A DNA stretch of 64,000 nucleotides from a virus (taxonomy: Duplodnaviria; Heunggongvirae; Uroviricota; Caudoviricetes), in the IMG/VR virus record IMGVR_UViG_3300033074_000580, positions 159,270-223,269 of that record. One strand, written 5' to 3'. The translations under genes and the position numbers were made by a program. Below the pieces are notes generated by a model that was given only the letters and a program-made list of their open reading frames with translations, ran no database searches and had not been told where the DNA came from. The number at the start of each line of letters is the position of its first letter. Within the stretch, counting starts at the first letter, position 1. Shown here piece by piece: positions 19,951-64,000 of this stretch.

Positions 19951-20285
19951 AGAAATTTTCTAATTTTATAGTACAACTTAAACAATCTTTTATATAACCA
20001 CTCAGGTTTCCTATAATAGAAACCCTTACTCTTTGTTTTTGGATAAGACCAATGATAACCAACCATTTGTTCAAATAGAAACTTTCTTAATCTGAATTTA
20101 ACTTCCTCCCAAAACGATAACATGTAGATATCACATGTTATTTTTTCATAATCACCTTCTATTTTAGTTTCAAACCAAAATAATGTGTTTCCCATTCTAC
20201 ACAAACCAGATAGATGAACATCGTAATGATTGGATATCCAAACAAAATCAATTTCATCATATGGTAATGTTGCTATTCGTTTCAT
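19947..20285 (-). CDS. hypothetical protein (112 aa)
   Basis: ORF track. Confidence 0.45.
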   Translation of the reverse strand: MKRIATLPYDEIDFVWISNHYDVHLSGLCRMGNTLFWFETKIEGDYEKITCDIYMLSFWEEVKFRLRKFLFEQMVGYHWSYPKTKSKGFYYRKPEWLYKRLFKLYYKIRKFL

Positions 20286-20872
20286 TTTAATAATTCATTT
20301 AAAACGTGTTTGGCAAATTTCTTATGTCCTGAAGATTTTAAATGAATACCATCATCAGAATCACTTCTGTCTACAGTATTATCCATAGGAATGATTCTAC
20401 ATCCAGTAATTCTTTCTTGAATTTTCTTTTGTAGTTTTATGTATCGATTTCTACAACGAGTGGTTGTTGCATCGTCATAAGTTGTTCTAACATTAACCTT
20501 CTCAGGGTTATAACCAACAATAACAATGACTTCCATCTCATATAGATTACCTAAGTCAACCATCGATTGAATGTTATTCAATGTTTCCGTTTCACTAGTC
20601 ATCGCAAATGAATCATTGATACCACCGTATATAATTAAAGTTGAATGAAATTCATTTTTCTTTAAGTAAGATTCCAATGTTGATAACATCCACTTAGTTC
20701 TTTTACCTCCTTTTGATATGTTATGAAACTTCATATCCATACCCTTAGCCACACTTGATTGCCATCCACCACTATAACAAGTTAAACTATCTCCCACAAA
20801 TAATATCCTTCTACCTGTCTCAGATTTAAAAGATACCATAGTTAAACATAAAAATAAAATTACTCCCCTCAT
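20282..20872 (-). CDS. SGNH/GDSL hydrolase
   Basis: 'ILFVGDSLT' block I with the catalytic Ser; signal-like N-terminus. Confidence 0.7.
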   Translation of the reverse strand: MRGVILFLCLTMVSFKSETGRRILFVGDSLTCYSGGWQSSVAKGMDMKFHNISKGGKRTKWMLSTLESYLKKNEFHSTLIIYGGINDSFAMTSETETLNNIQSMVDLGNLYEMEVIVIVGYNPEKVNVRTTYDDATTTRCRNRYIKLQKKIQERITGCRIIPMDNTVDRSDSDDGIHLKSSGHKKFAKHVLNELLK

Positions 20873-22349: not shown

Positions 22350-22745
22350 TTATTCTTTTGGTTTAATTAGTTTAACATTTTTAATTGTTGTTTGTTTGTC
22401 TTTTGGGTTGATAAGAATATCGATACGTTTTTTATATCGTTTATTCATGACATCTTGGACGACGTATTCACCATTGAATTTACCTGCGTTTTTGATTGTA
22501 AGTTTTGTTCCAAACGGATATTTCTTTTTTAAATCTCTTGACACCGCCATTATGCGATGTTTCTTTGGATTCTTCTTACTAATTTTAAAACCAGATGCGG
22601 TAATTCTTGGGTGTTTATCTGTCTCAGAACCAACAGACTTATATGTTGTTAGGGTAACAACTTCAAACGGTTCAACTTCTATACTATCTTCGTTAACTTC
22701 CTGTGGAAATATAACGAACATCATTAAAAATAATAGTATATTCAT
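22350..22745 (-). CDS. secreted protein (131 aa)
   Basis: trimmed to the ATG that gives the signal peptide MNILLFLMMFVIF; perfect minus-strand promoter upstream. Confidence 0.5.
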   Translation of the reverse strand: MNILLFLMMFVIFPQEVNEDSIEVEPFEVVTLTTYKSVGSETDKHPRITASGFKISKKNPKKHRIMAVSRDLKKKYPFGTKLTIKNAGKFNGEYVVQDVMNKRYKKRIDILINPKDKQTTIKNVKLIKPKE

Positions 22746-22769
22746 TTTTGTATGTGTTTGTTTCTTCTC

Positions 22770-22802
22770 CAAAGATATTATATTTTTTTGAATATTCCAA
22801 AA
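22770..22802 (-). promoter_or_regulatory. minus-strand Bacteroidota-type promoter, TTTTGGAATATTC class
   Basis: minus strand reads TTTGgaatattcaaaaaaatataaTATCTTTG. Confidence 0.65.
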
Positions 22803-23664: not shown

Positions 23665-23913
23665 TTATAGCTTTTCTAACACTATTTTATTTAATTCACT
23701 ATCCCTCAGGGCTATGGTTTGACAAACCTCACCACTATTAGTTAATAGGGAAACTAAATAAACCCCGTTTTGACGTAATTTGATTTTAATTATTTCACCA
23801 CATATGAATCCCATTTCCATCAATCTTAATCGAATACAAGGTTTACATTTTAAACAATGTTCAGCTTCGGGAATATCGATAACTTTATATAATTCACCAA
23901 TTTCTAATTTCAT
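23665..23913 (-). CDS. FeoA-like (SH3-like) domain protein
   Basis: 'RLRLMEMGFICGEIIKIK...GEVCQTIALRDSELNKIVLE' matches the FeoA pattern. Confidence 0.5.
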   Translation of the reverse strand: MKLEIGELYKVIDIPEAEHCLKCKPCIRLRLMEMGFICGEIIKIKLRQNGVYLVSLLTNSGEVCQTIALRDSELNKIVLEKL

Positions 23914-24641
23914 TTATAATTTTTTAAATAATATTCTAAATCTTCTGGCGTCCCAAGTCCCCACATATCTTTTGATTCAATCATATAGTTGTATATTTGT
24001 AAACCATTACCGATTGCTTCGTTATAAACAGGACAAACATAAAATTCATTATTAACTCGGATGTTCTTATCAATCATTTGTTCTGCGGATTTAACAAAAT
24101 CCGAACCATGTTTCCAATAGTAAATTCCTGCAGTTGCCTTATTTGATATTGCTCTTTTTTCCGCAACCTCAGTTATTAGATTGGTGTTGCTGTTTACCCT
24201 TGCAAATGACCACTTCTCATCATATGCTTCGAAACACATTATTGCGCCATCATATTCTTTAACCGCACCCATGAAATCATTTGAGTCCCATATAATTAAC
24301 TGGTCTGAATTCATGATGATTAAAGGGTTATCATTATTGATTAGTTCTTTAGATGCCAACACACTACACGCAGCACCTTCAGTTAATCCATTAACTTCCA
24401 CAATTGAGAAGTTAGGAGTGAAAGATAAAATATCATCCAATGGATAATCGAGTCTATGTTCCTTTTGAACGATGTATATGAAATGAGCATCTATGTTCAT
24501 GGATTCAACAACCAATTTAACCATCGGTTTTCCATTAACATCAATCAATGGTTTTGGCAATTCGTATCCAACCTTTTGGAATCGACTACCCAATCCCGCC
24601 ATTGGGATTACAACATTTAATTTATTGTTTTTATATTTCAT
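23910..24641 (-). CDS. sugar-phosphate nucleotidyltransferase
   Basis: N-terminal 'VIPMAGLGSRF' NTP-transferase signature. Confidence 0.7.
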   Translation of the reverse strand: MKYKNNKLNVVIPMAGLGSRFQKVGYELPKPLIDVNGKPMVKLVVESMNIDAHFIYIVQKEHRLDYPLDDILSFTPNFSIVEVNGLTEGAACSVLASKELINNDNPLIIMNSDQLIIWDSNDFMGAVKEYDGAIMCFEAYDEKWSFARVNSNTNLITEVAEKRAISNKATAGIYYWKHGSDFVKSAEQMIDKNIRVNNEFYVCPVYNEAIGNGLQIYNYMIESKDMWGLGTPEDLEYYLKNYK

Positions 24642-25492
24642 TAAAATAAATAATCTTTATAACTAATATTATGTTGGTCCATGTATTTTTTTATATCCAC
24701 AAATCTTTCTTCTTTAACCATGTTTTTCCAATTATATGCGAATCTATGTGAATCAATAACATCTTTGTTATATTCTAATTTACCATTTAAAAAATCCATA
24801 TAATCTGGTCTTATCAACATAGGCTCAACCATACCAGATTTTTGGTAGATTAGTCTATGTTTCATATAGAATGATGTTAGTTTATGATGTGGATTGGCAA
24901 TGTATAAATTTTTCTTATTTAATGTTAACTCAGTATCATATAATCTTGAACAAAATACATTAGACGCAACCGAACCCGCCTTCATGAAAAAATCGGAAGA
25001 CATTGGATAATCATCTTTAGTTGATTCAAAATGAATATCTAAATTTGTTATCTCCAATGAAAATATTTTAGATTTTAGATGTTTAAAATTTTTATTTTCA
25101 ATTTTATATAAAACATCCGGTCTAATAAAAATCACAAAGTCATAATCAAAATTAAAACTAACTTCTCGTTTTCTTTTTGCAATTGATAATATTGAATCTA
25201 AGTAAGCAATCTTCAAATAATTATTTTTTTTAAATGAAGATTCATATTCAACGGATTGTTCATGAAAGTTATTTCTTACAATTGCACCGGTTTCTTTTAC
25301 AGATGCATTTAGATAAACTAAATTATAATTTTTGAAATCCTCATAAATCGCTTCATTATTTACGGTTCCTGAATCCCACATCGCAATATACCAATCGGGG
25401 TTATCATATAAAGTATTAAACAATTCAATTGTTTCGTTTTTTATTAGATTCCACGTTCTAGCATGACCCCTTAAAAATATTGCAACTTTCAT
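24641..25492 (-). CDS. hypothetical protein, paralog family A (283 aa)
   Basis: N-terminus 'MKVAIFLRGHARTW...YIAMWDSG' parallels that of 45414..46136. Confidence 0.55.
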   Translation of the reverse strand: MKVAIFLRGHARTWNLIKNETIELFNTLYDNPDWYIAMWDSGTVNNEAIYEDFKNYNLVYLNASVKETGAIVRNNFHEQSVEYESSFKKNNYLKIAYLDSILSIAKRKREVSFNFDYDFVIFIRPDVLYKIENKNFKHLKSKIFSLEITNLDIHFESTKDDYPMSSDFFMKAGSVASNVFCSRLYDTELTLNKKNLYIANPHHKLTSFYMKHRLIYQKSGMVEPMLIRPDYMDFLNGKLEYNKDVIDSHRFAYNWKNMVKEERFVDIKKYMDQHNISYKDYLF

Positions 25493-48974: not shown

Positions 48975-49006
48975 AAATAAAAAACCCATTGAAAATCAAT
49001 GGGTTA
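48975..49006 (-). terminator. minus-strand terminator
   Basis: A-run, then AACCCATTGAaaaTCAATGGGTT. Confidence 0.65.
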
Positions 49007-52357: not shown

Positions 52358-52492
52358 ATGGCAAAAGCAAAAGGTAAAGGTGGTGCATCTTCAATGAAGA
52401 TTACCTTCGGAAAAAGGAAGAGCGGAAGGTCTCAAAAATCTTGGGGTCCTAAGGCTCAAAAACCTAAGAAATATAGAGGTCAGGGTCGTTAA
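52358..52492 (+). CDS. Lys/Gly-rich basic micro-protein (44 aa)
   Basis: manually read: MAKAKGKGGASSMKITFGKRKSGRSQKSWGPKAQKPKKYRGQGR; hairpin plus T-run follows. Confidence 0.3.
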   Translation: MAKAKGKGGASSMKITFGKRKSGRSQKSWGPKAQKPKKYRGQGR

Positions 52493-52965
52493 TTTAAACG
52501 TCCTGCCCCCTTATATGAGCGTAGGTAACGGGGTTCAAATAAGCTACTTATTTTAACCCCTTCCTTTTTATTTGCGGCATGAGCGAAAGTATCGTTACCC
52601 AAATACAACCCACAATGCCAACCACTTGGACTTTGTCTACTTCTAAAGAATACTATATCTCCAACCTGTAAACTATCTTTCTTTACTCTTTTGGTTTGAT
52701 TCCATTGTTCTGCACAATTTTTACCCAATTTCAAACCATAAACCTCCCAATATAATTTTTTAGTAAATTGGGAGCAGTCAATACCTCTTTTGGTACTACC
52801 ACCTAAACGATATTTTACCCCATACCATTCCATTACAAATGATGTTAATGGGGTTAATTTTGTTGGGTTTAGTTTACTGTATTCGACATAATCTATAAAT
52901 TGATTTTGACCATATCCAATAGACCCAATCATTAAAAATGTAATAATAAATGTAATTTTTTTCAT
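52489..52965 (-). CDS. NlpC/P60-family peptidase with signal peptide
   Basis: 'GIDCSQFTKKLY' catalytic Cys, downstream His; start set at the signal peptide MKKITFIITFLM. Confidence 0.7.
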   Translation of the reverse strand: MKKITFIITFLMIGSIGYGQNQFIDYVEYSKLNPTKLTPLTSFVMEWYGVKYRLGGSTKRGIDCSQFTKKLYWEVYGLKLGKNCAEQWNQTKRVKKDSLQVGDIVFFRSRQSPSGWHCGLYLGNDTFAHAANKKEGVKISSLFEPRYLRSYKGAGRLN

Positions 52966-52966
52966 A

Positions 52967-54013
52967 CTAATTTGATAAAGGTGCTTTAATTGTTGGGTGT
53001 GATTCATAATTTACTAATGTAAAATCCTCTAATTTATACATCGGTAAGGAATCACCTTCCAATCTTTTAACATTTTCTTCTATTTTCAATAATGGTAGAT
53101 TCTTAAAAGGTTCTCTACTAATTTGTTCTTTTGCCTGTTCAATATGGTTTGAGTATAAATGAACGTCTCCCAAATTACCAATCAACTCATCTGGAACCAT
53201 ACCCACCTCTTTGGATATAATTTCCAATAATAAACCATATGATGCGATATTAAATGGTAAACCTAAAAATGTATCCACACTTCTTTGATTCCACATTAAA
53301 GAGATTGCTCGTTTTGGGACCGGATATAATTTATCAATTTCTTCATGGTCTACTTTGTGGAAATCAAACGGCTCAAATAAATTACCATAAGTTTTTGATG
53401 CTAAATCTAATCTTTCTTCAATATTTAACTCTCTAGTATAAACTTGAAATCCATAATGACAAGGTGGTAAAACCATTTGGTCTAACTCACCTACATTCCA
53501 AGCCGATACCATTAACCTTCTACTATCAGGATTTGTTTTAAGTTCGTTAATTAAGTTTTGGATTTGGTCTGTTCCCCAAGTGTGATTTGGTTTAGTCCAA
53601 TCTCTCCATTGCTTACCATAGATTGGTCCTAATTCACCCCATTTTTCTGCAAACTCATCATCGGTTTTGATTTTATCAACAAATAGTTCTTTGGTTAGTT
53701 GACTTTCATTACCAAACCATTCGGTCATTTTCTTTTGGTAATTCTTATAAGCATCCCCATCCCAAATGTGACAACCATTATCAATCAGATATTTTATATT
53801 TGTGTCTCCACGTAAAAACCATAACAATTCAATTACCATTGTTTTCCACGCCATCTTTTTAGTTGTAAGTAATGGGAAACCTTGGGACATCTTATGACGA
53901 ATTTGACGACCGAATACTGATATAGTACCAGTTCCCGTTCTATCGGTTTTAACAATCCCATTATCGATGATATCTTGTAATAGTTCTTGATATTTGATGT
54001 CTAATGTATTCAT
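52967..54013 (-). CDS. thyA: thymidylate synthase (ThyA family) carrying a ~40-aa insertion
   Basis: 'DRTGTGTISVFG', 'PPCH', 'FLGLPFNIASY' and 'GDVHLYSNH' conserved blocks. Confidence 0.9.
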   Translation of the reverse strand: MNTLDIKYQELLQDIIDNGIVKTDRTGTGTISVFGRQIRHKMSQGFPLLTTKKMAWKTMVIELLWFLRGDTNIKYLIDNGCHIWDGDAYKNYQKKMTEWFGNESQLTKELFVDKIKTDDEFAEKWGELGPIYGKQWRDWTKPNHTWGTDQIQNLINELKTNPDSRRLMVSAWNVGELDQMVLPPCHYGFQVYTRELNIEERLDLASKTYGNLFEPFDFHKVDHEEIDKLYPVPKRAISLMWNQRSVDTFLGLPFNIASYGLLLEIISKEVGMVPDELIGNLGDVHLYSNHIEQAKEQISREPFKNLPLLKIEENVKRLEGDSLPMYKLEDFTLVNYESHPTIKAPLSN

Positions 54014-54639
54014 ATTAAATTTTTTCTTTCTGATTTTGTTTGTATAATTTTCATTATGTCTTCTGCCAATTGCTTTTGACCCTTTTCCGAAAAATGACCA
54101 TCAACCAATTCAAAATTCGTTTCATCACCTATTGTGTGATAACCACCAAAAGGATAACAATTTAATTTAGTGGTAAACGGTGTCCAATGAATTATGGTAT
54201 TGTGGGTGTTTGTTAGGTTAATATAATCAATCCAATAATTTACCTCATTTAAAAACTTATCAGACATTCTATTAACAAACATTTCTTCTACCGTTCTTTC
54301 TGAAATGTCCAAATCATCTAATACGTTTTTAAAATTTGGCACCATTGTAATCCATTCCCCACTTTTGGTTACAACTCTAAACCTTTCAATTGACGACCAA
54401 TTTATTAGTACTATATCATCACTTTTTATTTCTGAATAATGTTTAAAGAATGATTCCAAAATTGAGTAGTTATCATTTCCACCAACACCATAATTTATGA
54501 GGTCACATCCTAATTTCTCCGATATAATTTCTGAAAATATTTTAGGTTTATAACCTTTCCACTTCACATAAGAAGTTGACCATATGGCATACTCATTGTA
54601 ACCTTCACTAAAACTATCTCCGAATGTAAACAACTTCAT
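54010..54639 (-). CDS. SGNH/GDSL-like hydrolase
   Basis: 'LFTFGDSFSEG'. Confidence 0.6.
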   Translation of the reverse strand: MKLFTFGDSFSEGYNEYAIWSTSYVKWKGYKPKIFSEIISEKLGCDLINYGVGGNDNYSILESFFKHYSEIKSDDIVLINWSSIERFRVVTKSGEWITMVPNFKNVLDDLDISERTVEEMFVNRMSDKFLNEVNYWIDYINLTNTHNTIIHWTPFTTKLNCYPFGGYHTIGDETNFELVDGHFSEKGQKQLAEDIMKIIQTKSERKNLI

Positions 54640-54640
54640 A

Positions 54641-55009
54641 TTAAAACTTACTAATGCTTAATCTTTGTTTATTCTCTTTTTCAATTTCACGAGAATATTT
54701 TTCTTTCATTCCAGTAACTCTATGAATATCTCTATATGCCTCAATATGATAATCGTGTAAATAATTCATCATAAATTCATACTCACCAATTATATCATCA
54801 TAACGTCTTTCTTTTGAATCCCAACCATCTTCTTCAGACTTTAAGGTTCCCTCTAAATTACTTATTACGGTTTGTAATGAATCTTCTTTACAATTTGTTT
54901 TAATAGTATCATATGCTATTTCTGGTTTATCATAAATCATATAGATTGATGAGGTCACCATTAACATAAACACTAAAATGTGCCAGGTTTTAACTTCGTT
55001 ATTTTTCAT
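54641..55009 (-). CDS. membrane-anchored protein (122 aa)
   Basis: N-terminal TM segment. Confidence 0.45.
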   Translation of the reverse strand: MKNNEVKTWHILVFMLMVTSSIYMIYDKPEIAYDTIKTNCKEDSLQTVISNLEGTLKSEEDGWDSKERRYDDIIGEYEFMMNYLHDYHIEAYRDIHRVTGMKEKYSREIEKENKQRLSISKF

Positions 55010-55214
55010 TTGTATAATATGGATTTATTTGAAATTGTATTCCCATAAAAAATGTTAACCATCTTACACTAAACCCAATTGCTGGTGTGTAACATCCTGT
55101 TGAAAAAAATACATCTTTTCTATAAAAGAAAACAATCGTTGGTATGATAAACCAATGATATTTCTTATTATAAAGAAAGAAGTCTGTCAAATACTTTGGT
55201 TCTCTATTCTTCAT
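54999..55214 (-). CDS. small membrane protein (71 aa)
   Basis: ORF track; hydrophobic. Confidence 0.3.
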   Translation of the reverse strand: MKNREPKYLTDFFLYNKKYHWFIIPTIVFFYRKDVFFSTGCYTPAIGFSVRWLTFFMGIQFQINPYYTNEK

Positions 55215-55503
55215 TATTTCTTTTAAAATATGGTTTTAACTTTTCTTTTATTGCGTCATAGTGAACCATGGCAAACCACTTACCAACAATACTACCCATA
55301 ATATAAAAAATTATACCTAGATAATCACCTCTGAATAAACCATCTAATGAATAGTAGGTTGACCCTAATGCCATTAAATTTATCCAAACACTATTGACCA
55401 ATAAACTTTTTATTTTATTCTCATATGTAAACCTTATCTCCATTACTTTGAAGATGTTAAACATAATTTGAAAAAATAAAATTAGTAAATAATTATTCAT
55501 CAT
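55204..55503 (-). CDS. membrane protein (99 aa)
   Basis: three hydrophobic segments. Confidence 0.4.
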   Translation of the reverse strand: MMNNYLLILFFQIMFNIFKVMEIRFTYENKIKSLLVNSVWINLMALGSTYYSLDGLFRGDYLGIIFYIMGSIVGKWFAMVHYDAIKEKLKPYFKRNNEE

Positions 55504-55798
55504 AATCTCCTGTTGTTCTTCTTAATAATCTATCCACTTCGTCTTCTTTTTCTTTCAATTCGACAATTCTCATATACCAACCCTTCTTATCCGCATCTGG
55601 CTTTTCTACTTTTACGTTTTTATCAAACCATTTACTAAACCAAGTTCCTTTGTATACTAATACTTGACATCTCTCATCAAATTCATTTGCATCATCTTGG
55701 TCTAATAAACCTTCACCGACTAATTTTTGTAATATTAGTTCTTTTACTTTTTGGTAGTTAGACATATCGGTTTCTAACTGTAATAATTGTGCGTCCAT
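55493..55798 (-). CDS. hypothetical protein (101 aa)
   Basis: ORF track. Confidence 0.45.
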   Translation of the reverse strand: MDAQLLQLETDMSNYQKVKELILQKLVGEGLLDQDDANEFDERCQVLVYKGTWFSKWFDKNVKVEKPDADKKGWYMRIVELKEKEDEVDRLLRRTTGDYDE

Positions 55799-55810
55799 AT
55801 TTAATTTTAT

Positions 55811-56410
55811 TTAGTCTACATCATTTAATGTCCAAAGTTGCACGGTTAATGCCTTCCCTCTTGTATCTTGAAAATCAAAGTCAATCTCTAATTCTGTTCC
55901 TTTAAAGAATACTTTATCGACAAAGTCCCAATCACCATCGGGTGTATCGATTGAACCTCTAATATATGAGAAATCTTTGGCTGTAGGTATTTCTTCAGAT
56001 TCTAAATTAAAACCGTAAACAATTCCTTTATTTTCCTCAAAGAAAAGTAGAATGTTTTCATCACCATCTTCTTCAGGGTAACCATTTAAATTTCTACCTT
56101 CATAATCTTCAACGACTTCATAATGGTCAGTCATATCATCCAACTTGAATGTACCGACGGTTTCACCATTCTCATCTTCGATTATGAATTCCAATCTATC
56201 ATTATCCATTGGAACATCAATAACCCACATGTTGGTACTGAATGGTTCATATCCATCAACAACAGTTTCGATATCCCAAGCCATTTCACTAAGTTCATCG
56301 TGACCGTTTTCTTCTTGATATTCTCGAAGGTCTTCAACCTGTTCATTGGTGAGTGAATGTGCCGATGCGTTTAGTTCCCACCCGTGTACTTTTAATTTGT
56401 AGTTTGCCAT
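55811..56410 (-). CDS. hypothetical acidic protein (199 aa)
   Basis: trimmed to ATG MANYKLK; removes the 113-nt overlap with the upstream gene. Confidence 0.5.
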   Translation of the reverse strand: MANYKLKVHGWELNASAHSLTNEQVEDLREYQEENGHDELSEMAWDIETVVDGYEPFSTNMWVIDVPMDNDRLEFIIEDENGETVGTFKLDDMTDHYEVVEDYEGRNLNGYPEEDGDENILLFFEENKGIVYGFNLESEEIPTAKDFSYIRGSIDTPDGDWDFVDKVFFKGTELEIDFDFQDTRGKALTVQLWTLNDVD

Positions 56411-56414
56411 ATTA

Positions 56415-57014
56415 CTAAATTGATTCATATTCAATTTCACCATAATCATAATAGTCGTTATCGTCATTATTAACAACACCTTCTTGCCACGGGTCTTCCT
56501 CAACCATTTTGATTGCCTCACATGCACTTCTTGCGGTTACAGTATATGTCCAAGATTGTGTAAGTGGTTGTTCTGCTTTAATTGTAAATTCATGATATTC
56601 ATCATCTTCTTCATCACCACAATCATCCAAATCATAATCAACAACTTCTTTAACTGGTTTAAGTGGTCGCTTGAATTCGTCAATTGCCTCCATCAATCTA
56701 TTTCTAATTGAAATTAGTTGTTCCAAATCAAGAGACATAAATTCGAAGTTACCAACAGCGGTACATAGCTTGATTGAAACACTTGGGACTTGTCCTTTGG
56801 ATTCATCATCATCGTTTGATAAATCTACATAGAAACTATCTAATCTACCAAATTCAACGGTGTCAACTTTAGGTGAAGTATATTTTATTGTCCATTCATC
56901 CGGATTAGTCGCCTCCATTGTCATAAACTCAAGTTCTAAATCCGATAATGTTTTCATTGCATCAGAATATCTTTTCTCAAAATCCTTCTGCCATTTTTTA
57001 GTGAACTTTGCCAT
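56415..57014 (-). CDS. hypothetical acidic protein (199 aa)
   Basis: ORF track. Confidence 0.5.
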   Translation of the reverse strand: MAKFTKKWQKDFEKRYSDAMKTLSDLELEFMTMEATNPDEWTIKYTSPKVDTVEFGRLDSFYVDLSNDDDESKGQVPSVSIKLCTAVGNFEFMSLDLEQLISIRNRLMEAIDEFKRPLKPVKEVVDYDLDDCGDEEDDEYHEFTIKAEQPLTQSWTYTVTARSACEAIKMVEEDPWQEGVVNNDDNDYYDYGEIEYESI

Positions 57015-57019
57015 GTTGT

Positions 57020-57190
57020 TTATTTTTTAGGTTTTTTAAAATAGTCTAATATTATATTAAACGACCCAAGACTTATTGCACCCCACCCAAAATAATTAAC
57101 TAAATTAGGGTCGGCACCTCTAAGTCCATATTTTTCAACCAATATACCCGTGACTATCATCATCACGTAAATTATCTGTCTTAGTTTCAT
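57020..57190 (-). CDS. small hydrophobic protein (56 aa)
   Basis: manually read ATG ORF MKLRQIIYVMMIVTGILVEKYG... Confidence 0.3.
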   Translation of the reverse strand: MKLRQIIYVMMIVTGILVEKYGLRGADPNLVNYFGWGAISLGSFNIILDYFKKPKK

Positions 57191-57246
57191 TTCCTTTTTT
57201 TCACTAATATAGTAAATTTATATTAAAATTCCAAATAATTATCAAT

Positions 57247-57609
57247 ATGGTTCATATTAACAACAAAACATTTCCCGCCGAATATTTATCAACCGATGAA
57301 GAAATTGAAAAGGGAATGATGGGTAGAGATTCATTAGAAGGATGTATGGTTTTTAAAATGGGTAAAGGACATCATTCATTTTGGATGAAAAATTGTCTCA
57401 TACCCCTTGATATTGTGTTTGTTACAAATAATCGTATTAGCCGAATACACCCTAACTGTCCCGCACCAAATCCACGTCAAATGACTTTACCAAGATATAC
57501 CGGAATCGGTGACCATGTTATAGAGTTTCCCGCCGGAACATCTAATGGTTGGAAAGTTGGAGATAAGGTTGCCATGTACTTAGGTACTCCTCAAAATCCA
57601 GTTAGATAG
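57247..57609 (+). CDS. DUF192-domain protein
   Basis: 'GMMGRDSLEGCMVFKMGKGHHSFWMKNCLIPLDIVFV' matches the DUF192/COG1430 pattern. Confidence 0.6.
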   Translation: MVHINNKTFPAEYLSTDEEIEKGMMGRDSLEGCMVFKMGKGHHSFWMKNCLIPLDIVFVTNNRISRIHPNCPAPNPRQMTLPRYTGIGDHVIEFPAGTSNGWKVGDKVAMYLGTPQNPVR

Positions 57610-58348
57610 TTTCATTAAATTGGTATTCAATACTGTAATCTTCATTCCTTATCTTATTTAAAAAAACATCGTAAAGGGTGTCGTGAAATTTTTTCGATGG
57701 GTGAGCCAAATCTCTTGCAAGTTTATCATACCTATCAGGAAAATAACCCAAATGATAATAGTTACATCCTATTTTATTTGCTAAATTTTTAATTGAATTA
57801 ACATATGTGATATACAATAAATTAAGTTGTTCATTGTCAATTAAGTACTTAGAATATAATTCTTCATGTTCTTTATCATGTATACTTATTATTCTTGGTT
57901 TTCCATCAATAAAAAATTCATACCTCGGTAGTATCGGTGCGAAATGAAAAATATTTTTAATTTTCAATTCTTCATGAAAACCATATAATATTCTAAATTG
58001 ACTCATAATACTTGACCCACCTAATGATAGGTTCCAAAATTTTCCACCGATAGTCTGATTTAATTTATACGCCCACGTATCTTCGAGATGTAATCCAATA
58101 CCCATAGTGAAACTACAACCCAAATAAACATTACCTTCTTCATTTATATTAAAATCATCCGCCGTTCTGAATCCATTATTATTGAATTGATATTCGATTG
58201 GATTATTCAAATAATAATTTAAAGTTTCATTAGACGGGTCATTTTTGAGGTTATCATAAAATCTTTCCTTCGTATCCATGGGACACCAAAGTAATGTTTT
58301 ATTTTTAGGGTAAAAACTATATTTGTATTTATTGTTCATCCTCAACAA
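57602..58348 (-). CDS. hypothetical protein (248 aa)
   Basis: ORF track. Confidence 0.5.
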   Translation of the reverse strand: MLRMNNKYKYSFYPKNKTLLWCPMDTKERFYDNLKNDPSNETLNYYLNNPIEYQFNNNGFRTADDFNINEEGNVYLGCSFTMGIGLHLEDTWAYKLNQTIGGKFWNLSLGGSSIMSQFRILYGFHEELKIKNIFHFAPILPRYEFFIDGKPRIISIHDKEHEELYSKYLIDNEQLNLLYITYVNSIKNLANKIGCNYYHLGYFPDRYDKLARDLAHPSKKFHDTLYDVFLNKIRNEDYSIEYQFNETI

Positions 58349-59012
58349 TACACGTATTTATATAATCGTATTTAACTTTTGGTTTTACTTTTTCAAATAC
58401 CCAAAAATAAGAATGATATTTTCTTGCATGATATTGTTTAGTCCATTTTGTACCGTTAAAGGCATTGACTCTAACATTTGAAGTTAATACAAATAAATCT
58501 CTTGGGTAAAATCCAATTCTATATGCCATGTTCATAACCATGACGTGACTGAAATATTGTTTACCTCCCGATACGGTATCTTGACATTTCATCACAACAA
58601 AACCACCATCTTCGGTAATTCTATACAATTCTTTCAATGTGTTATTGTAGTTTGATTTTAAATCCTCGTAAGTTCCATACCCCTCAAATCTTTTTGCAAT
58701 AATAGAACTACCTTCTTTACCGTTTCTGTGACTATTACCACTACCAACAATAACAAATGGTGGGTCCCACATAATACTTTTCATTGAATTGTTTTCAAAC
58801 GGCAAATTTTCTGAGTTGGCTTCGATTACCGATTCATTTATAGGATATAAATCTGTTTTGTGTTTTGGACCATTTAAATCTTTCCAAAAATTACCTTTGG
58901 AATATGTACAATCCAAATCAAACTGTTCTATACCATATAATTCCATTATGTTTTTAATTGTTTCATAATTGGATCCGTACACACTTTTTACCGGCTTAAA
59001 GTCTTTTTCCAT
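58329..59012 (-). CDS. hypothetical protein with DPPF motif (possible amino-methyltransferase-like)
   Basis: 'IMWDPPFV' resembles motif IV of N6A/N4C methyltransferases; no clear SAM motif I found. Confidence 0.4.
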   Translation of the reverse strand: MEKDFKPVKSVYGSNYETIKNIMELYGIEQFDLDCTYSKGNFWKDLNGPKHKTDLYPINESVIEANSENLPFENNSMKSIMWDPPFVIVGSGNSHRNGKEGSSIIAKRFEGYGTYEDLKSNYNNTLKELYRITEDGGFVVMKCQDTVSGGKQYFSHVMVMNMAYRIGFYPRDLFVLTSNVRVNAFNGTKWTKQYHARKYHSYFWVFEKVKPKVKYDYINTCIVEDEQ

Positions 59013-59100
59013 TGATTTTTATTTTCTTTTTGTTTACATTTAATCAAAGTATAAGAAATAAAAACTAATAAACCAAAATATTTATAAAAAAAGAAACATT

Positions 59101-59247
59101 ATGGGATGCGGATGTAAAAAAAGAAATCAGGATACAGCAACAGAACCAGTACCTTTAACAATTAAAATTACCGAACAACAAACACCGGTACCTACACAAC
59201 CAGCACCTGTTCAGGAGCAAACTACAACAGATAATACTAACCAATAA
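59101..59247 (+). CDS. small Cys-rich / Pro-Thr-Gln-rich protein (48 aa)
   Basis: manually read MGCGCKKRNQ...; followed by terminator hairpin 59255-59293. Confidence 0.25.
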   Translation: MGCGCKKRNQDTATEPVPLTIKITEQQTPVPTQPAPVQEQTTTDNTNQ

Positions 59248-59254
59248 TAAAAAA

Positions 59255-59293
59255 ATATCGGGCAGAAATATAGATTTTGTCCGATATTTTTTG
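59255..59293 (+). terminator. rho-independent terminator
   Basis: ATATCGGgcagaaatatagattttgtCCGATAT followed by T6. Confidence 0.65.
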
Positions 59294-59328
59294 TATACTT
59301 AGTATATATAAATGTATAAACATATATA

Positions 59329-59526
59329 ATGAAAATAGAGAAGAAGCTAACGAGTGTTCATATATTGGACGACGTTTATAAGAAATTCAAGGTTAATGCC
59401 ATTGATGGTACAATTAACTTACAAAAATTAGTTAACAGGTCATTAGACTTGTATAATAAAGACGAATCTTTTAGAGAAAAGATAGATAATCACACTGGTT
59501 TAGCTGTGAGTGGTTCAAAGTATTGA
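59329..59526 (+). CDS. hypothetical protein (65 aa)
   Basis: ORF track. Confidence 0.4.
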   Translation: MKIEKKLTSVHILDDVYKKFKVNAIDGTINLQKLVNRSLDLYNKDESFREKIDNHTGLAVSGSKY

Positions 59527-59530
59527 TTTA

Positions 59531-60892
59531 ATGAAGAAGAAAAAAATATTATTATTATCTGACGATTTGCGAATGACGTCAGGTATTGCCACCATGTCTA
59601 AAGAAATCGTATTGGGTACAATTGACAAATACGACTGGGTTCAATTAGGTGGGGCAATTAAACATCCTGAATTTGGAAAAGTTGTTGATATAAATGACGA
59701 TGTTAGAAAGAGAACGGGTGTTGAGGATGCTAATTTAAAAATAATTCCATATAATGGTTATGGTGATATTGGTATTCTTAGAAAATTATTATTAGAAGAA
59801 AAACCAGATGCTATTTTACATTTCACCGACCCACATTATTGGCAATGGTTATATGATAATGAACATGAAATAAGACAAGTATGTCCAATACTTTATTATC
59901 ACATATGGGATAACTTACCAGACCCAAAATATAATAGAGATTTCTATGAAAGTTGTGATTGGATTGGTTGTATATCTAAACAAACATATGGTATTGTTCA
60001 TAGAGTTGGTAAAATGACTGATGAACCAACATATAAACCTTTAGAAGATTGGCAGATTAGTTATGTTCCACACGGAATAAATCCTGAGGTGTTCAAACCG
60101 ATTGATAAAATTTCAGATGAATTCGATAAGTTTTTGTTTTCAAAAAAGAAATATGAATTCATTTTATTTTACAACAATAGAAACATAAGAAGAAAACAAC
60201 CAAGTGATGTGATATATTCATATAAATTGTTTTGTGACATGTTACCGAAGGAAGAATCTGATAAATGTCTATTGTTAATGCACACCGCACCAGTTGACGA
60301 TAATGGTACAGATTTAAATGCAGTTAAAGATACTTTATGTCCTGACTACGATGTTAAATTTACCAACATTAAATTAGAACAGGATAAATTAAATGAATTA
60401 TATAACGCATCTGATTGCACAATAAACATTGCAAACAATGAAGGTTTCGGTTTAACCACAGTCGAAAGTCTAATGGCCGGAACACCAATCATTGTAAATG
60501 TAACAGGAGGTTTACAAGACCAATGTGGTTTTAATTACACCGCAGACAATTACATTACATTTGGTTCACTTCATATTAAAAAAGACCACGGGTCAACAAA
60601 ACATGGTGAATGGGTTAAACCAGTATGGTCAGTTGCAAATAACATAAATGGTTCGGTACCAACACCTTATATTTTTGATGATAGAGTAAACGATTATGAT
60701 GTTGCACAAGCAATTAGTGAAGTTTATTCATGGGGTAAAGAGGGTAGAAAAGAAAGAGGATTAAAGGGTCGTGAATTTGCAATTGAGAACTTCTCATCAA
60801 AAGTGATGTGTGATAAAATGGTTGAGGGAATTGAAACCGCATTGATGAATTATAAACCAAGAGAAAAATTTAATTTATATAAGTTAGTATGA
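59531..60892 (+). CDS. glycosyltransferase family 4 (GT-B)
   Basis: 'NNEGFGLTTVESLMAGTPIIV' E-x7-E motif; start trimmed to MKKKKILLL. Confidence 0.8.
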   Translation: MKKKKILLLSDDLRMTSGIATMSKEIVLGTIDKYDWVQLGGAIKHPEFGKVVDINDDVRKRTGVEDANLKIIPYNGYGDIGILRKLLLEEKPDAILHFTDPHYWQWLYDNEHEIRQVCPILYYHIWDNLPDPKYNRDFYESCDWIGCISKQTYGIVHRVGKMTDEPTYKPLEDWQISYVPHGINPEVFKPIDKISDEFDKFLFSKKKYEFILFYNNRNIRRKQPSDVIYSYKLFCDMLPKEESDKCLLLMHTAPVDDNGTDLNAVKDTLCPDYDVKFTNIKLEQDKLNELYNASDCTINIANNEGFGLTTVESLMAGTPIIVNVTGGLQDQCGFNYTADNYITFGSLHIKKDHGSTKHGEWVKPVWSVANNINGSVPTPYIFDDRVNDYDVAQAISEVYSWGKEGRKERGLKGREFAIENFSSKVMCDKMVEGIETALMNYKPREKFNLYKLV

Positions 60893-62145
60893 ACAAACCA
60901 ACATTATTATTTAGAGGACCAGTAAAAACGAGAAGTGGGTACGGTGCACATTCAAGAGATTTATTACAAGCATTGTATGAGATGGATTTGTTTGATATTA
61001 AAATTGATAGTTGTATGTGGGGAACCACACCAATGACCGCATTGGAAAGTGATAATACATTTCACAAATGGATTGAATCGAACATTGTAACAGTTAATTT
61101 AAATCAGACACCCGAACTTTATATTCAAGTCACAGTACCAAATGAATTTCAAAGAGTTGGTAAATTTAACATAGGAATTACTGCGGGTATTGAAACAACA
61201 ATTGCACCAAAAGATTGGGTTGATGGTTGTAATAGAATGGATATGATAATCACCACATCAACATTTTCTAAGGATGTATTATTACAAACTGTTTATAATG
61301 AAAATGAAAAGAATACTGGAAAATTAGTTAAACAACATAGAATCGAAAAACCTATTGAAGTATTGTTTGAAGGTGTTAATACTAATGTTTATAACAACAT
61401 TAAAAATGATGACTTTAAATTAGATATTTTGGAAGATTTTGCGTATCTTTTTGTTGGTCATTGGTTAAAAGGTGATTTAGGACAAGACAGAAAAGATGTG
61501 GGTATGTTGATTAAATGTTTTGCAAGTGCGTTTAAGGATAGTGAAGATAAACCCGCATTAGTTTTAAAAACATCGTCCGCAGGATTTTCAATAAAAGAAA
61601 GAGAATCTTTCAGAAAGAAAATTCAAGGATTAGTTAGTGATATACCAAATCCACCTTCCATTTATTTGTTATTTGGTGAATTATCAGATAGTGAAATGAA
61701 TGACCTATATAACCACCCAAAAATTAAATCAATGGTATCAATAACAAAAGGTGAAGGGTTTGGTAGACCATTGTTAGAGTTTTCAATGACGGGTAAACCA
61801 ATAGTTGCATCTAACTGGTCGGGACATAAAGATTTTTTACCTATGGATAAGGCAATTATGGTTGGAGGTAAATTGACAGATGTTCACGATAGTGCAATTG
61901 ATTCATTTATAATAAAAGGTTCCAAATGGTTTACTGCAAATTATGGTGAAGTTGTTGAGGTATTAAAATTAGTTAAGAAAGATTATGATATGTTTATAAA
62001 AAAATCTGAAGTTTTGAGAGAAGAGAATGTTAATAATTTTTCAATGGAAAAAATGAAAGATAAGTTTAAATCAATAATCTTGCCGTTTATGGTTATTCCA
62101 CAAGAAACTAAATTAGTTTTACCTAAATTAAATAAAATTAAGTAG
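60889..62145 (+). CDS. glycosyltransferase family 4-like (GT-B)
   Basis: 'KGEGFGRPLLEFSMTGKPIVAS'. Confidence 0.75.
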   Translation: MNKPTLLFRGPVKTRSGYGAHSRDLLQALYEMDLFDIKIDSCMWGTTPMTALESDNTFHKWIESNIVTVNLNQTPELYIQVTVPNEFQRVGKFNIGITAGIETTIAPKDWVDGCNRMDMIITTSTFSKDVLLQTVYNENEKNTGKLVKQHRIEKPIEVLFEGVNTNVYNNIKNDDFKLDILEDFAYLFVGHWLKGDLGQDRKDVGMLIKCFASAFKDSEDKPALVLKTSSAGFSIKERESFRKKIQGLVSDIPNPPSIYLLFGELSDSEMNDLYNHPKIKSMVSITKGEGFGRPLLEFSMTGKPIVASNWSGHKDFLPMDKAIMVGGKLTDVHDSAIDSFIIKGSKWFTANYGEVVEVLKLVKKDYDMFIKKSEVLREENVNNFSMEKMKDKFKSIILPFMVIPQETKLVLPKLNKIK

Positions 62146-62147
62146 AG

Positions 62148-62411
62148 ATGGCTAAGTCAAGAAAAAAGAAAATTGAAACTCCTGAGGTTGAATTTGACCT
62201 TAATGTTCCTGAAATTGAATATTATACTCCGTGTGAGTGGATGATTCAATTTGACGATGATGAACCTCAATTGTTTGCACAATCAGACGATAATTCAACC
62301 AATCATGAAGTTGTAATTAAATTACAAAACACAAACCAATCGTTTATAACTTTTACCAATAGTGAAAATGGTAAGACTTTTAAAATGTGGGCAAGACCCA
62401 AACAAAAATGA
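62148..62411 (+). CDS. hypothetical protein (87 aa), tandem paralog
   Basis: 'QFDDDEP' block shared with the next gene. Confidence 0.4.
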   Translation: MAKSRKKKIETPEVEFDLNVPEIEYYTPCEWMIQFDDDEPQLFAQSDDNSTNHEVVIKLQNTNQSFITFTNSENGKTFKMWARPKQK

Positions 62412-62665
62412 GTTTTAAATTTTTAAGAGGTGATGAAGATATATTTTTAAGATTGGAACCAATGCAGGTATTATCTTTAAGACAAAACACACCTCACACA
62501 AATAATGAATATTGTTTTCAATTCGATGACGATGAACCTCACGTGTTTGGTACGGGTCATGATACATTAACTATGACAATACAACCAACAACCGGTGGGA
62601 ACATAACATTCGAACATAATGGTAGAAGATTTAAAATATTTGCGAGGGAAAGAATAAATGAATAG
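62408..62665 (+). CDS. hypothetical protein (85 aa), tandem paralog
   Basis: ATGA overlap; trimmed to MSFKFLRG. Confidence 0.4.
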   Translation: MSFKFLRGDEDIFLRLEPMQVLSLRQNTPHTNNEYCFQFDDDEPHVFGTGHDTLTMTIQPTTGGNITFEHNGRRFKIFARERINE

Positions 62666-62885
62666 TTTTAAATTTTTTCGTGGCTTTGTTGTTGATGTTG
62701 AAACGGAATTAACGAATATGTTATCCGAACAAATTGCGAGAGAAATTGATAATAATATTATTGATGAATTAACCAGAAGAATAAACGATGGTGTACCATC
62801 AATATTTGAAGGTAGAATACAACGTTTAAATACTAATTTAGAATATTTTAATCGTTGGATGGACATAGGAGGACAAAGAGCATGA
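62658..62885 (+). CDS. hypothetical protein (75 aa)
   Basis: ORF track. Confidence 0.35.
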   Translation: MNSFKFFRGFVVDVETELTNMLSEQIAREIDNNIIDELTRRINDGVPSIFEGRIQRLNTNLEYFNRWMDIGGQRA

Positions 62886-62972
62886 GATGTGAAAGACACA
62901 GTTGGGATTCTAAAGACGCTGAGTGGTGTTGGAGATGTGAAGAATTAACGATAGAAGAAAATAAACGAAAAT

Positions 62973-63593
62973 ATGAAGATAAGTTACGCAATAACAATTT
63001 GCAACGAATTGACGGAAATAAGGAGATTAGTCCCGTTTTTATTGGATTACAAGAGACCTCAGGACGAAATAGTGATTCTATATGATAACACAAATGGAGA
63101 CCCTGACGTATTAAATTTTCTATTACCGTATAATAAACTACCAAATGTTCAAACTTGGAGATGTTTTGATTGGAATGATAATTTTGCCGATTTTAAAAAC
63201 ATATTAAACGGTTATTGTACTGGTGATTATATCTATCAAATTGACGCAGATGAGATGATTAGTCAATATATGGTTGAGAATTTACATAACATTCTTGAAA
63301 TGAACCCAAACGTAGACTTAATCTTTGTACCCCGTATTAACACAGTAGATGGGATAACACAAGAACATATCGACACTTGGAGATGGAACATAAATGAAAA
63401 GGGTTGGATAAATTTTCCCGATAGACAAGGTAGAATTTATAAGAAACATCTTAGATGGTATGGTAAAGTTCATGAAAGGATTATAGGCGGTAGTAAATTT
63501 GCCTCCTTACCTGATGACGAAGAATATTGTATTCAACATCACAAAACAATACAAAGACAAGAAAAACAAAACAAATATTACGGAACAATATGA
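62973..63593 (+). CDS. glycosyltransferase family 2-like
   Basis: 'ISYAITICNE' N-terminus and 'YQIDADEMI' DxD-like motif. Confidence 0.55.
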   Translation: MKISYAITICNELTEIRRLVPFLLDYKRPQDEIVILYDNTNGDPDVLNFLLPYNKLPNVQTWRCFDWNDNFADFKNILNGYCTGDYIYQIDADEMISQYMVENLHNILEMNPNVDLIFVPRINTVDGITQEHIDTWRWNINEKGWINFPDRQGRIYKKHLRWYGKVHERIIGGSKFASLPDDEEYCIQHHKTIQRQEKQNKYYGTI

Positions 63594-64000
63594 TAATAAA
63601 TAAACTAATAATCGATTCATCAGATTCAATTACTGATTTATGTAAGTTGGGTGTAAAATATCCAACAGATAAATCTCCATATGTTGTTCATGATGGACAT
63701 AGACATCCATACATGGCGGTATATGATATGTTATTTATGTCATTACGATACAAACCAATTAAATTTGCTGAAGGCGGTATTGCCGAAAATATGTCAATGA
63801 AGTGTTGGAGGGAATACTTCCCATATGCCGAGTTACATGGATTTGAATATGACCAAACATACATGAATAAAGCAATTAGTGATAATTTAGAAAACACTAC
63901 ATATCATTTCATGGATGTTAATAAATCCGAGTCAATTGAAGAGTGTTTACAATCGACTGGTGGTGGATTTGATGTGATAATTGATGATATGATACATGAT
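63590..64000 (+). CDS. SAM-dependent methyltransferase-like protein (partial; runs off the window)
   Basis: manually read ORF MIINKLII...; 'FAEGGIAENMSM' glycine-rich loop and acidic 'VIIDDMIHD'. Confidence 0.35.
   Translation, partial: MIINKLIIDSSDSITDLCKLGVKYPTDKSPYVVHDGHRHPYMAVYDMLFMSLRYKPIKFAEGGIAENMSMKCWREYFPYAELHGFEYDQTYMNKAISDNLENTTYHFMDVNKSESIEECLQSTGGGFDVIIDDMIHD

Follow-up and report, generated by a model that had tools for sequence, protein, structure and literature searches.

The subject of this work is a cluster of glycosyltransferase (GT) genes, termed here the island, at the end of a 64,000-nucleotide stretch of phage DNA (positions 159,270 to 223,269 of IMG/VR record IMGVR_UViG_3300033074_000580), the whole of which is referred to as the window. 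An earlier interpretation made from the letters of this DNA (the sequence-only reading) had proposed a toolkit for glycan assembly and decoration, split between this plus-strand cluster and a minus-strand block, and acting on the virion, the host surface or conceivably the phage DNA. Genes in the window lie on the plus strand to ~14 kb, then on the minus strand to ~59 kb, with a return to the plus strand at 59.3 kb; the window is low in GC (~32%) and phage-like. That the region is phage-like is argued also by the 258 IMG/VR viral contigs that encode close relatives of the first GT, GT4a. The best 80 of these 258 (68–81% identical) are the related loci of all comparisons below. Since their source contigs reach 335 kb, and an identical copy of the second GT, GT4b, is found on a contig of more than 200 kb, the source of the window is, judged from its sequence relatives, an uncultured jumbo-phage lineage. 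In a megablast comparison none of 50,697 phage records matched the island; relatives there are found at the protein level only. Domains were called with Pfam hidden Markov models (HMMs) at their gathering cut-offs, together with PHROG and NCBIfam profiles, and pN/pS served as our measure of purifying selection on island genes.

The two GT4 genes and the GT2-like gene named in the sequence-only reading are indeed present at the head of the island. GT4a scores 35 bits (E 1.4e-8) against PF00534 Glycos_transf_1, for which the cut-off is 26.4, and also matches PF20706 GT4-conflict (6.5e-7) and phrog_2170 (4e-20). Both glutamates of its EX7E motif, 'EGFGLTTVE' (E311 and E319), are invariant across 12 homologues, and its best solved relative is the chlorovirus NY-2A protein B736L (3oy2; E 3.4e-10 over ~150 residues, one GT-B domain). 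GT4b falls slightly under the PF00534 cut-off (1.9e-5, 24.7 bits) and is assigned through phrog_2170 'glycosyltransferase' (7e-20); it carries the EX7E-type sequence 'EGFGRPLLE' and is 43% identical both to immuto_90 of Flavobacterium phage immuto, annotated RfaG, and to a neighbour gene of Microcystis phage Mel-JY01. GT2a exceeds the PF00535 Glycos_transf_2 cut-off of 23.3 (30.8 bits, 3.4e-7), contains a DxD-type 'IDADE', and is 49% identical to immuto_92 over its full length. In contig L003 the GT2a gene is called as a 173-amino-acid (aa) protein plus a 67-aa open reading frame (ORF); a frameshift or phase variant was considered and rejected, the DNA being identical and the immuto homology backing the 206-aa model. 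Window and L003 differ at just 4 positions across 13.1 kb, all of them inside 51 nt of the ThyA gene (53738–53788).

The window holds the first 4.5 kb of an island of ~12 kb. Contig L004, which is 100% identical to window 53603–64000, runs 8.1 kb further, and on it the plus-strand block goes on for ~7.4 kb past the window end, with nine further plus-strand genes. Because the genes abut or overlap, their arrangement suggests an operon-like island. After GT2a the order is methyltransferase-like protein, TOD1/MUCI70-type protein, GT2-like protein, proteins of 303 and 181 aa, Methyltransf_24 protein, DegT aminotransferase, short-chain dehydrogenase/reductase (SDR) and GT2c, so that three GT-like genes lie past the window end (TOD1/MUCI70-type, GT2-like and GT2c) and the GT-like total comes to six or seven. 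The toolkit proposed earlier, covering activation, transfer and methyl, sulfo and acyl tailoring, thus holds and is larger than was visible, its acyl component being doubtful for reasons given below. The gene that had been read as a methyltransferase running off the window does match phrog_21658, and its complete product has 215 aa (L004 9988–10635); since the full-length score against Methyltransf_31 (E 1.5e-5, 25.1 bits) falls under the cut-off of 27, its sequence warrants the name 'methyltransferase-like' only. In some relatives an Anp1/GT62-like GT-A protein (L096 13002–13637 and L098 13202–13837, minus strand; Pfam 6e-8) lies directly downstream of GT2c, where L004 has a 153-aa unknown protein and a DUF401 membrane protein instead.

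Comparison of the related loci reveals that the island is a fixed core of four GTs (GT4a, GT4b, GT2a and GT2c, the last just beyond the window end) around a hypervariable sugar-tailoring cassette. GT4a and GT4b occur in all 80 loci, GT4a at a median identity of 75%; GT2a occurs in 78 (median 69%) and GT2c in 58, and the conserved set as a whole, which includes a 65-aa ORF at the head of the island, stands at median identities of 69–78%. Purifying selection on the core GTs is strong (pN/pS 0.035–0.066: 0.042 for GT4a, 0.035 for GT4b and 0.066 for GT2a). The interval between GT2a and GT2c ranges from 0 to 7373 nt and contains 62 protein clusters; the genes that this phage carries there recur in just 2–18 of the 80 loci, with close relatives of the methyltransferase-like gene in only 8. 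When the cluster representatives were screened with Pfam, methyltransferases proved numerous, the rhamnosyl O-methyltransferase family among them, and there were also epimerases/dehydratases, extra GT2s, aminotransferases, hexapeptide acyltransferases, a UDP-galactopyranose mutase and a KAS-III-like enzyme.

As an aminotransferase, a dehydratase-type SDR and methyltransferases are present together, the sugar supplied by the cassette of this phage is probably of the methylated 4-amino-4,6-dideoxyhexose type. None of the island sugar enzymes reached an NCBIfam equivalog threshold that would name the exact sugar; the island encodes no nucleotidyltransferase of its own. Pfam found no initiating phosphoglycosyltransferase, flippase, polymerase, ligase, ABC exporter or GtrA/GtrB/GtrC among the island genes, and no transmembrane segment was detected (no hydrophobic 19-residue stretch above 1.3 on the Kyte-Doolittle scale in any island protein). 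The core GTs are acidic to neutral, with pI values of 4.9–7.1.

Several small genes accompany these enzymes. The 65-aa ORF at the head is found in 79 of the related loci (median 74% identity; pN/pS 0.082), is basic (pI 9.3), and is 39% identical to immuto_88, which directly precedes the immuto GT4. A ribbon-helix-helix-type regulator is one possibility for it; no HMM backs that assignment, and Pfam returned no matches. Downstream of GT4b lie sA and sB, tandem paralogs (BLASTP 8e-9) with the common motif 'QFDDDEP', whose family is present in one or two copies in 67 related loci (86 members of 76–101 aa by jackhmmer), is strongly constrained (pN/pS 0.077) and has no Pfam match. A derivation of sA/sB from the capsid protein, or a relationship to immuto_91, was considered, and jackhmmer gave no link.

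The remaining small gene surfaced from a tblastn search with the immuto major capsid protein, and lies between GT4b and GT2a. The family HMM of this gene, mini-Gp23, matches the window ORF at 3.6e-13, the genuine immuto capsid protein at 1e-17 and T4 gp23 at 1e-9; the window copy alone falls slightly under the Pfam Gp23 cut-off of 24.4 (22.9 bits, 6.6e-5). In solved capsids the family profile aligns to T4 gp23 residues 251–315, which we take to be the strand and long 'spine' helix region of the HK97-type fold. At the level of sequence, the homology of this segment of ~60 residues to the capsid protein is solid, and at 75–110 aa the product cannot be a complete capsid protein. Members are found in 55 of the 80 related loci (L008–L087), and also in L096 (7001–7327) and L098 (7001–7474); they range from 69 to 171 aa, start with 'FKFF(R/H)G' and end with '...INGG.RA'. 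A large protein database holds 1321 homologues, metagenomic in origin, of which the top 120 all have 92–171 aa and PF07068, and two that we checked independently occupy the same genomic position. One variant (L047 8682–9068) carries a Thr/Asn/Gly-rich low-complexity insertion of ~50 residues ('TGTGTITTNGGYALTTTNTGTANYTTLTATN...'); segments of this composition are often O-glycosylated.

The gene order small ORF, GT4, GT4, small gene, GT2, cassette, GT2 is found also in immuto (MW353176 genes 88–101) and in Mel-JY01, at 36–49% identity, and GT4a has weaker matches in Rhodothermus phage RM378 and in a 484-kb uncultured phage. The core order therefore recurs in cultured phages of three host phyla, more weakly in RM378. 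The rest of the window shares almost nothing with immuto.

Our favoured reading of these results, to which we assign a probability of about 0.42, is that the island enzymes glycosylate a virion protein in the cytoplasm. The four soluble core GTs would build a conserved core oligosaccharide, in the cytoplasm of the infected cell, on a phage-encoded acceptor that would most likely be a virion protein: the capsid protein or a capsid-associated protein. The cassette would then supply and attach strain-specific terminal sugars, giving related phages different glycan 'serotypes', while mini-Gp23 and sA/sB may connect the enzymes with the capsid, whether as acceptor, adaptor or chaperone, and a nucleotide-sugar supply and a further sugar, or a sulfated one, may come from the minus-strand locus. 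Since the core order is kept in phages of three host phyla, we infer an acceptor that is intrinsic to the phage rather than specific to the host. The virion as target is favoured also by the following: the GTs have core-gene status and are strongly constrained; the enzymes are soluble, and no export machinery would be needed; a capsid-derived gene is embedded in the island as a conserved internal member; and among solved structures GT4a is closest to a chlorovirus GT, with precedents for virion glycosylation in mycobacteriophages and giant viruses. Among the three candidate targets the evidence leans to the virion, and proves nothing.

A number of points weigh against this reading. The window presents about a fifth of a genome of ~300 kb. 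Apart from mini-Gp23, a tblastn search with 17 immuto structural and replication proteins brought up no structural genes, neither across the 64 kb of the window nor up to 10 kb to either side of the island in the 80 loci. The solubility argument is weak, given that peripheral GTs acting on lipid-linked host intermediates are also without transmembrane segments, and for B736L, the closest structural relative of GT4a, no acceptor is known (PMC9614988). Besides PF00534, GT4a matches the GT4-conflict model above threshold, and selection for diverse DNA glycans by modification-dependent restriction would likewise be expected to yield a variable cassette. Finally, the pN/pS of mini-Gp23, 0.33, marks it as evolving faster than the rest of the island, and it was not found in immuto or Mel-JY01, so that it is not essential to the core module; a Ser/Thr-rich acceptor-like extension occurs only in the L047 variant, the longer variants elsewhere duplicating the 'RINGG' end instead, and because of this restriction to one locus the idea of mini-Gp23 as acceptor gains no support.

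Table 1. Genes of the island and of the minus-strand locus, with the separate second SGNH gene. Coordinates are those of the window unless contig L004 is named.
Feature	Position	Strand	Basis
65-aa ORF at head of island	59329..59526	+	conservation; no Pfam match
GT4a, core glycosyltransferase 1 (GT-B fold, retaining GT4 type)	59510 (GTG) or 59531 (ATG, alternative start)..60892	+	PF00534
GT4b, core glycosyltransferase 2	60889..62145	+	phrog_2170; PF00534 sub-threshold
sA, small protein	62148..62411	+	tandem paralog of sB
sB, second copy of sA/sB family	62387..62665	+	tandem paralog of sA
mini-Gp23, 75 aa	62658..62885	+	homologous to internal segment of T4-type major capsid protein
GT2a, core glycosyltransferase 3 (GT-A fold, GT2)	62973..63593	+	PF00535
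Methyltransferase-like gene, first of variable cassette, cut by window end	63590..64000	+	phrog_21658 2e-6
TOD1/MUCI70-type GT-like protein	L004, after GT2a	+	TOD1_MUCI70 8e-22
GT2-like protein in cassette	L004	+	profile match
Two unknown proteins, 303 and 181 aa	L004, cassette	+	
Second methyltransferase	L004, cassette	+	Methyltransf_24
DegT/PseC-type sugar aminotransferase	L004, cassette	+	2e-91
SDR epimerase/dehydratase	L004, cassette	+	1e-42
GT2c, core GT, 368 aa	L004 15882-16988	+	Glycos_transf_2, 37.9 bits
SGNH/GDSL hydrolase	20282..20872	-	PF13472
Minimal sulfotransferase-like protein, 192 aa	22803..23381	-	PF00685
Sugar-1-phosphate nucleotidylyltransferase	23910..24641	-	PF00483
283-aa protein, candidate glycosyltransferase	24641..25492	-	predicted GT-A-like fold
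Second SGNH-like protein, cytoplasmic	54010..54639	-	PF00657

The minus-strand locus (Table 1) proved to hold most of what had been claimed for it. The nucleotidyltransferase scores 38.8 bits (1e-9) against PF00483 NTP_transferase, above the cut-off of 21.2, has 'MAGLGSRF' as its G-x-G-(S/T)-R signature and matches phrog_3980 at 7e-71; all its NCBIfam equivalog scores lie far under the cut-offs, and no specificity was assigned. It is 53–58% identical to genes of T4-like cyanophages, and the S-CAM9 copy (58%) stands in a sugar cluster beside a GT6 gene. An identity as a UDP-arabinose enzyme of the RB69/DLP3 type was rejected, the phage homologues being cyanophage sugar-cluster genes. The SGNH hydrolase at 20282 matches PF13472 GDSL_2 (2e-11, 45.2 bits; cut-off 32.9), with 'VGDSLT' as block I and 'DDGIH' as block V, and its signal-peptide-like N-terminus, 'MRGVILFLCLTMVSF', makes it look secreted. 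The second SGNH protein, at 54010, does match PF00657 (1.2e-7, 32.6 bits), in the N-terminal block only, and was found in just 23 of the 80 related loci, at 41% identity; we consider its membership of the glycan system doubtful. A role for either protein in acyl tailoring of the island glycan is likewise doubtful, because the one looks secreted and the other is confined to 23 of 80 loci.

The protein that the sequence-only reading took for a sulfotransferase, which it thought unusual in a phage, passes the HMM check against PF00685 Sulfotransfer_1 (25.8 bits against a cut-off of 22; E 8.5e-6; residues 2–159). Its 'PRSGG' motif is shared unchanged by every homologue except one, and 20 sequences agree without exception in R74 and S83 ('R..(R/K)D.A.S'). 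These two elements correspond to the two motifs that bind 3'-phosphoadenosine 5'-phosphosulfate, the Arg–Ser spacing being one residue longer than that of SULT1A1. The protein has no Walker-A lysine, which argues against a kinase. Its AlphaFold model has a predicted local distance difference test (pLDDT) score of 85.7, and the Foldseek top matches are mostly cytosolic sulfotransferases (E 3e-5), at a query TM-score of only ~0.5 and with P-loop kinases (YorR, Fap7) interleaved. It is ~100 residues shorter than solved sulfotransferases, and phmmer against PDB sequences found nothing at E<=1. The family is rare: 23 homologues were found in 5.8 billion proteins, all metagenomic and on contigs of up to 324 kb, and tblastn gave 0 matches in the 50,697 phage records, though genes annotated as sulfotransferases have been reported from viromes (PMC10829341).

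The 283-aa protein had been described as a 'family-A paralog', a description that was not borne out: neither BLASTP nor phmmer --max found a paralog of it in the window. It has no Pfam, PHROG or NCBIfam match and no tblastn match in the phage records; 20 homologues share an invariant 'FLRGHARTWN' and two invariant 'IRPD' motifs. The Foldseek PDB top matches of its AlphaFold model (pLDDT 80.7) are all of the GT-A fold, and are weak (E 4e-4, query TM-score 0.36–0.43), so that the model makes it a candidate GT of a new family.

Do these genes belong together, and do they belong with the island? The genes for the GT-A-like protein, nucleotidyltransferase, sulfotransferase and 20282 SGNH hydrolase are contiguous in a 78%-identical relative (L091, L092), and on the strength of that order they probably form a small module in this clade. 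In the window other, unrelated genes come between them, coding for a FeoA-domain protein, a small protein rich in Cys and unknowns of 140, 170 and 199 aa. The FeoA-domain protein (82 aa; 23665–23913, minus strand; Pfam 1.4e-5) stands between the nucleotidyltransferase and sulfotransferase-like genes and is not there in the 78%-identical relative. The 140-aa protein (22350–22772, minus strand) has a hydrophobic N-terminus and a C-terminal half that looks by eye like a 3D/RlpA-like cell-wall-binding domain, with no Pfam match at E<=0.01.

Both gene sets of the 'split' toolkit are therefore real, but its functional unity is another matter: nothing ties the minus-strand module to the island, and a link between them is our inference. 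There is a real possibility, and one that would fit any target of the main island, that the two loci are functionally unrelated, the minus-strand genes being a small pathway of their own, or independent accessory genes, that make up one 'toolkit' by annotation only. The loci are 35 kb apart and on opposite strands; the four genes are interrupted in this phage; the more distant sulfotransferase homologues stand alone, among unrelated small genes; and, one SGNH match aside, none of the four lies within 10 kb of the island in the 80 loci. Against this stands the contiguity of the four genes in the 78%-identical relative, together with a biochemical consideration: the DegT and SDR steps encoded by the island need an NDP-hexose, which the minus-strand nucleotidyltransferase could supply, the island encoding no such enzyme itself.

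Other genes near the island, or elsewhere in the window, were observed in the course of this analysis. A DUF192 protein (57247–57609, plus strand; 4e-18) lies near the island in 77 of the 80 loci (74% identity) and is constrained like the GTs (pN/pS 0.076). A divergent N6/N4 methylase (58329–59012, minus strand), kept in 55 of the loci, adjoins the island, and two C5-cytosine methylase domains, one full and one partial, lie on the minus strand at 47911–48888 and 44366–45076. The 'LGCSFTMG' and 'NLSLGGSS' of a 248-aa protein (57602–58348, minus strand) resemble degenerate SGNH blocks I and II; HMM searches gave no match to this protein, and none of the 80 loci has a relative of it. The minus strand also encodes, at 48996–50396 and 50427–52286, two PcfJ-like proteins of 466 and 619 aa that are neighbours and paralogs (BLASTP 3e-15), and a 715-aa protein (35353–37500, minus strand) combines B12-binding (Pfam 2e-8) and radical-SAM (6e-11) domains, which is unusual for a phage.

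The ThyA homolog, 5.5 kb from the island, had prompted the suggestion in the sequence-only reading that the glycan might be placed on DNA. Positions 143, 146, 169 and 177 separate thymidylate synthases from hydroxymethylases and 5-hydroxy-dCMP synthases, the signatures of the latter enzymes being N177D, D169N and an altered L143 (PMC13326640). Window ThyA shares 51% identity with E. coli ThyA and retains L143, C146, D169 and N177, along with the C-terminal 'HPTIKAP'; a PDB search gave the same picture. These signature residues rule out a hydroxymethylase or a 5-hydroxy-dCMP synthase, and by them the protein is a canonical thymidylate synthase, making dTMP. ThyA therefore gives no support for DNA glycosylation, and the cue for a DNA target fails.

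There are nonetheless other grounds for considering DNA hypermodification, in which the GTs would assemble an oligosaccharide on the phage DNA, at a base that is hydroxylated or hydroxymethylated, to evade restriction, with the cassette diversifying it against modification-dependent nucleases. Phage GT-B enzymes that resemble host LPS, MshA or BshA enzymes do glycosylate DNA, in clusters that may hold nucleotide-sugar genes (PMC13326640; 10.1101/2023.12.21.572611), and jumbo phage YerA41 has a ~1 kDa modification of thymidine that its authors read as a likely novel oligosaccharide, given several proteins with GT motifs (PMC9023294). GT-B clusters are often near ThyA homologues, as here, with ThyA within 10 kb of the island in 63 of the 80 loci; the methylase genes described above, of which the N6/N4 one adjoins the island, and the GT4-conflict match of GT4a point the same way. 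Beyond the canonical ThyA, which by the published signature supplies no reactive base, we found no Tet_JBP-type dioxygenase, dCTPase or extra dNMP kinase among the ~45 window ORFs scanned, small ORFs being only partly covered. Immuto shares the core GTs, yet it already has a complete 7-deazaguanine DNA-modification set. Six or seven GTs, an amino-deoxy-sugar pathway and methyltransferases exceed the characterised DNA glycans, which are mono- to tri-saccharides; the core GTs have acidic to neutral pI; and it is hard to see what a capsid-derived gene within the operon would contribute to modifying DNA. We consider a DNA target unlikely on this balance.

Remodelling of the host envelope appears to us improbable. 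Here the soluble GTs would act on lipid-linked (undecaprenyl) intermediates or another envelope glycan of the host, relying on the host for initiation, flipping and export, and the resulting change of the cell surface might serve, for example, superinfection exclusion or alter grazing or adsorption, with the SGNH esterase and the sulfotransferase modifying the same polymer. This is the usual published reading of clusters of GT and nucleotide-sugar genes in large cyanomyoviruses (PMC12801897), to whose genes the window nucleotidyltransferase is 53–58% identical. The signal-like N-terminus of the 20282 SGNH protein, the nearby cell-wall enzymes (NlpC/P60 at 52489–53007 and a PG_binding protein at 40450–41727) and the likeness of the hypervariable cassette to an O-antigen or capsule locus would all fit. 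What makes us sceptical is that an initiating transferase, flippase, polymerase, ligase and Gtr-type membrane protein are all missing from the island, and that the core GTs, under very strong constraint, are 43–49% identical in phages that infect Bacteroidota and Cyanobacteria, phyla with different surface polymers. Moreover, the GTs behave as core rather than accessory genes in the 80 loci, as do the four GT orthogroups of an aquatic Bacteroidota jumbo-phage lineage (PMC12619734).

Virion glycosylation, which we continue to prefer, has a more specific form that seems to us distinctly improbable, namely a capsid 'serotyping' system in which the core GTs would glycosylate the major capsid protein, or a mini-Gp23 that docks on the head, with mini-Gp23/sA/sB as acceptor or adaptor and the cassette and sulfotransferase module varying the capsid glycan, possibly sulfated, from strain to strain.

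How does this system compare with those already known? One parallel is found in the 'moraphages', aquatic jumbo phages of Bacteroidota described in 2025, whose core genome includes four GT orthogroups (PMC12619734). We group the moraphages, immuto and Mel-JY01 with the window phage as aquatic jumbo or large myophages with predicted or known Bacteroidota hosts. The window holds no shared marker gene by which it could be placed inside or outside the moraphage lineage. In the reports on moraphages, immuto and Mel-JY01 the GTs are annotated only, and neither a core/variable architecture nor a capsid-derived gene is described. The T4-like cyanophages P-SSM2, S-SCSM1, S-SCSM2R and S-CAM9 are also large aquatic myophages with many GTs, epimerases and nucleotidyltransferases, and the nucleotidyltransferase beside a GT6 (GT-A) gene in S-CAM9 echoes the pair of GT-A-like and nucleotidyltransferase genes in the window; they differ in that the four core GTs have no close homologues there, a weak S-CBS4 match aside.

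Mycobacteriophages reportedly have their GTs, one to four in number, beside structural genes and do not encode the biosynthesis of nucleotide sugars. The window phage differs from them in its six or seven GT-like genes, amino-deoxy-sugar pathway and sulfotransferase-like gene, and in having no adjacent structural genes. That mycobacteriophage GTs and methyltransferases glycosylate virion proteins is established (Freeman et al. 2023, as cited in PMC12619734); the enzymes act in the cytoplasm, where capsid and tail-tube subunits receive their glycans with no need of an export machinery, as in the model favoured here. Giant viruses provide a second precedent. The capsid protein of chloroviruses is glycosylated by enzymes that the viruses themselves encode (PMC9614988), and the capsid N-glycans of chloroviruses and the fibril glycans of mimivirus (PMC9614988, PMC4691112) involve soluble GTs, sugar methyltransferases, an aminotransferase and a dehydratase, like the island, again with a conserved core and variable decoration. 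Their hosts are, however, eukaryotic, and homology to the island extends to one GT-B domain, with E 3e-10 over ~150 residues. Phage clusters for DNA glycosylation (T4 alpha- and beta-GT; the arabinosyl-5-hydroxycytosine systems of RB69 and DLP3, PMC13326640; glycans on 5hmC, 10.1101/2023.12.21.572611) resemble the window in placing GT-B/GT-A enzymes and a nucleotidyltransferase near a gene of the ThyA family, but the window ThyA is without D169N and N177D and its nucleotidyltransferase groups with those of cyanophages, not with the RB69 type.

The toolkit itself is thus not new, as sugar clusters of aquatic phages and the four core GTs of Bacteroidota jumbo phages are already on record. What we did not find described in the related literature is the architecture of a core with a hypervariable cassette, the capsid-derived and sA/sB genes embedded in it, and the sulfotransferase-like and GT-A-like families, which are putative enzyme families, new and very rare. 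To our knowledge, actinobacteriophages are the only phages whose own enzymes have been shown to glycosylate the virion, and the larger sugar clusters of aquatic phages have so far been put down to 'host surface' or 'DNA' without evidence. One such cluster is now seen to belong to the core of a widespread jumbo-phage lineage and to be a module under strong constraint, which turns a vague annotation into a testable hypothesis, and the cultured carriers of the core, immuto, Mel-JY01 and RM378, make the question of its target directly answerable. If the glycan is on the virion, it would bear on phage–host recognition, on the stability and stickiness of particles in water, and on immune and lectin recognition, and would extend 'autonomous viral glycosylation' from giant viruses to tailed phages. 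Capsid serotyping, if true, would be the tailed-phage counterpart of giant-virus capsid glycans and of bacterial O-antigen diversity.

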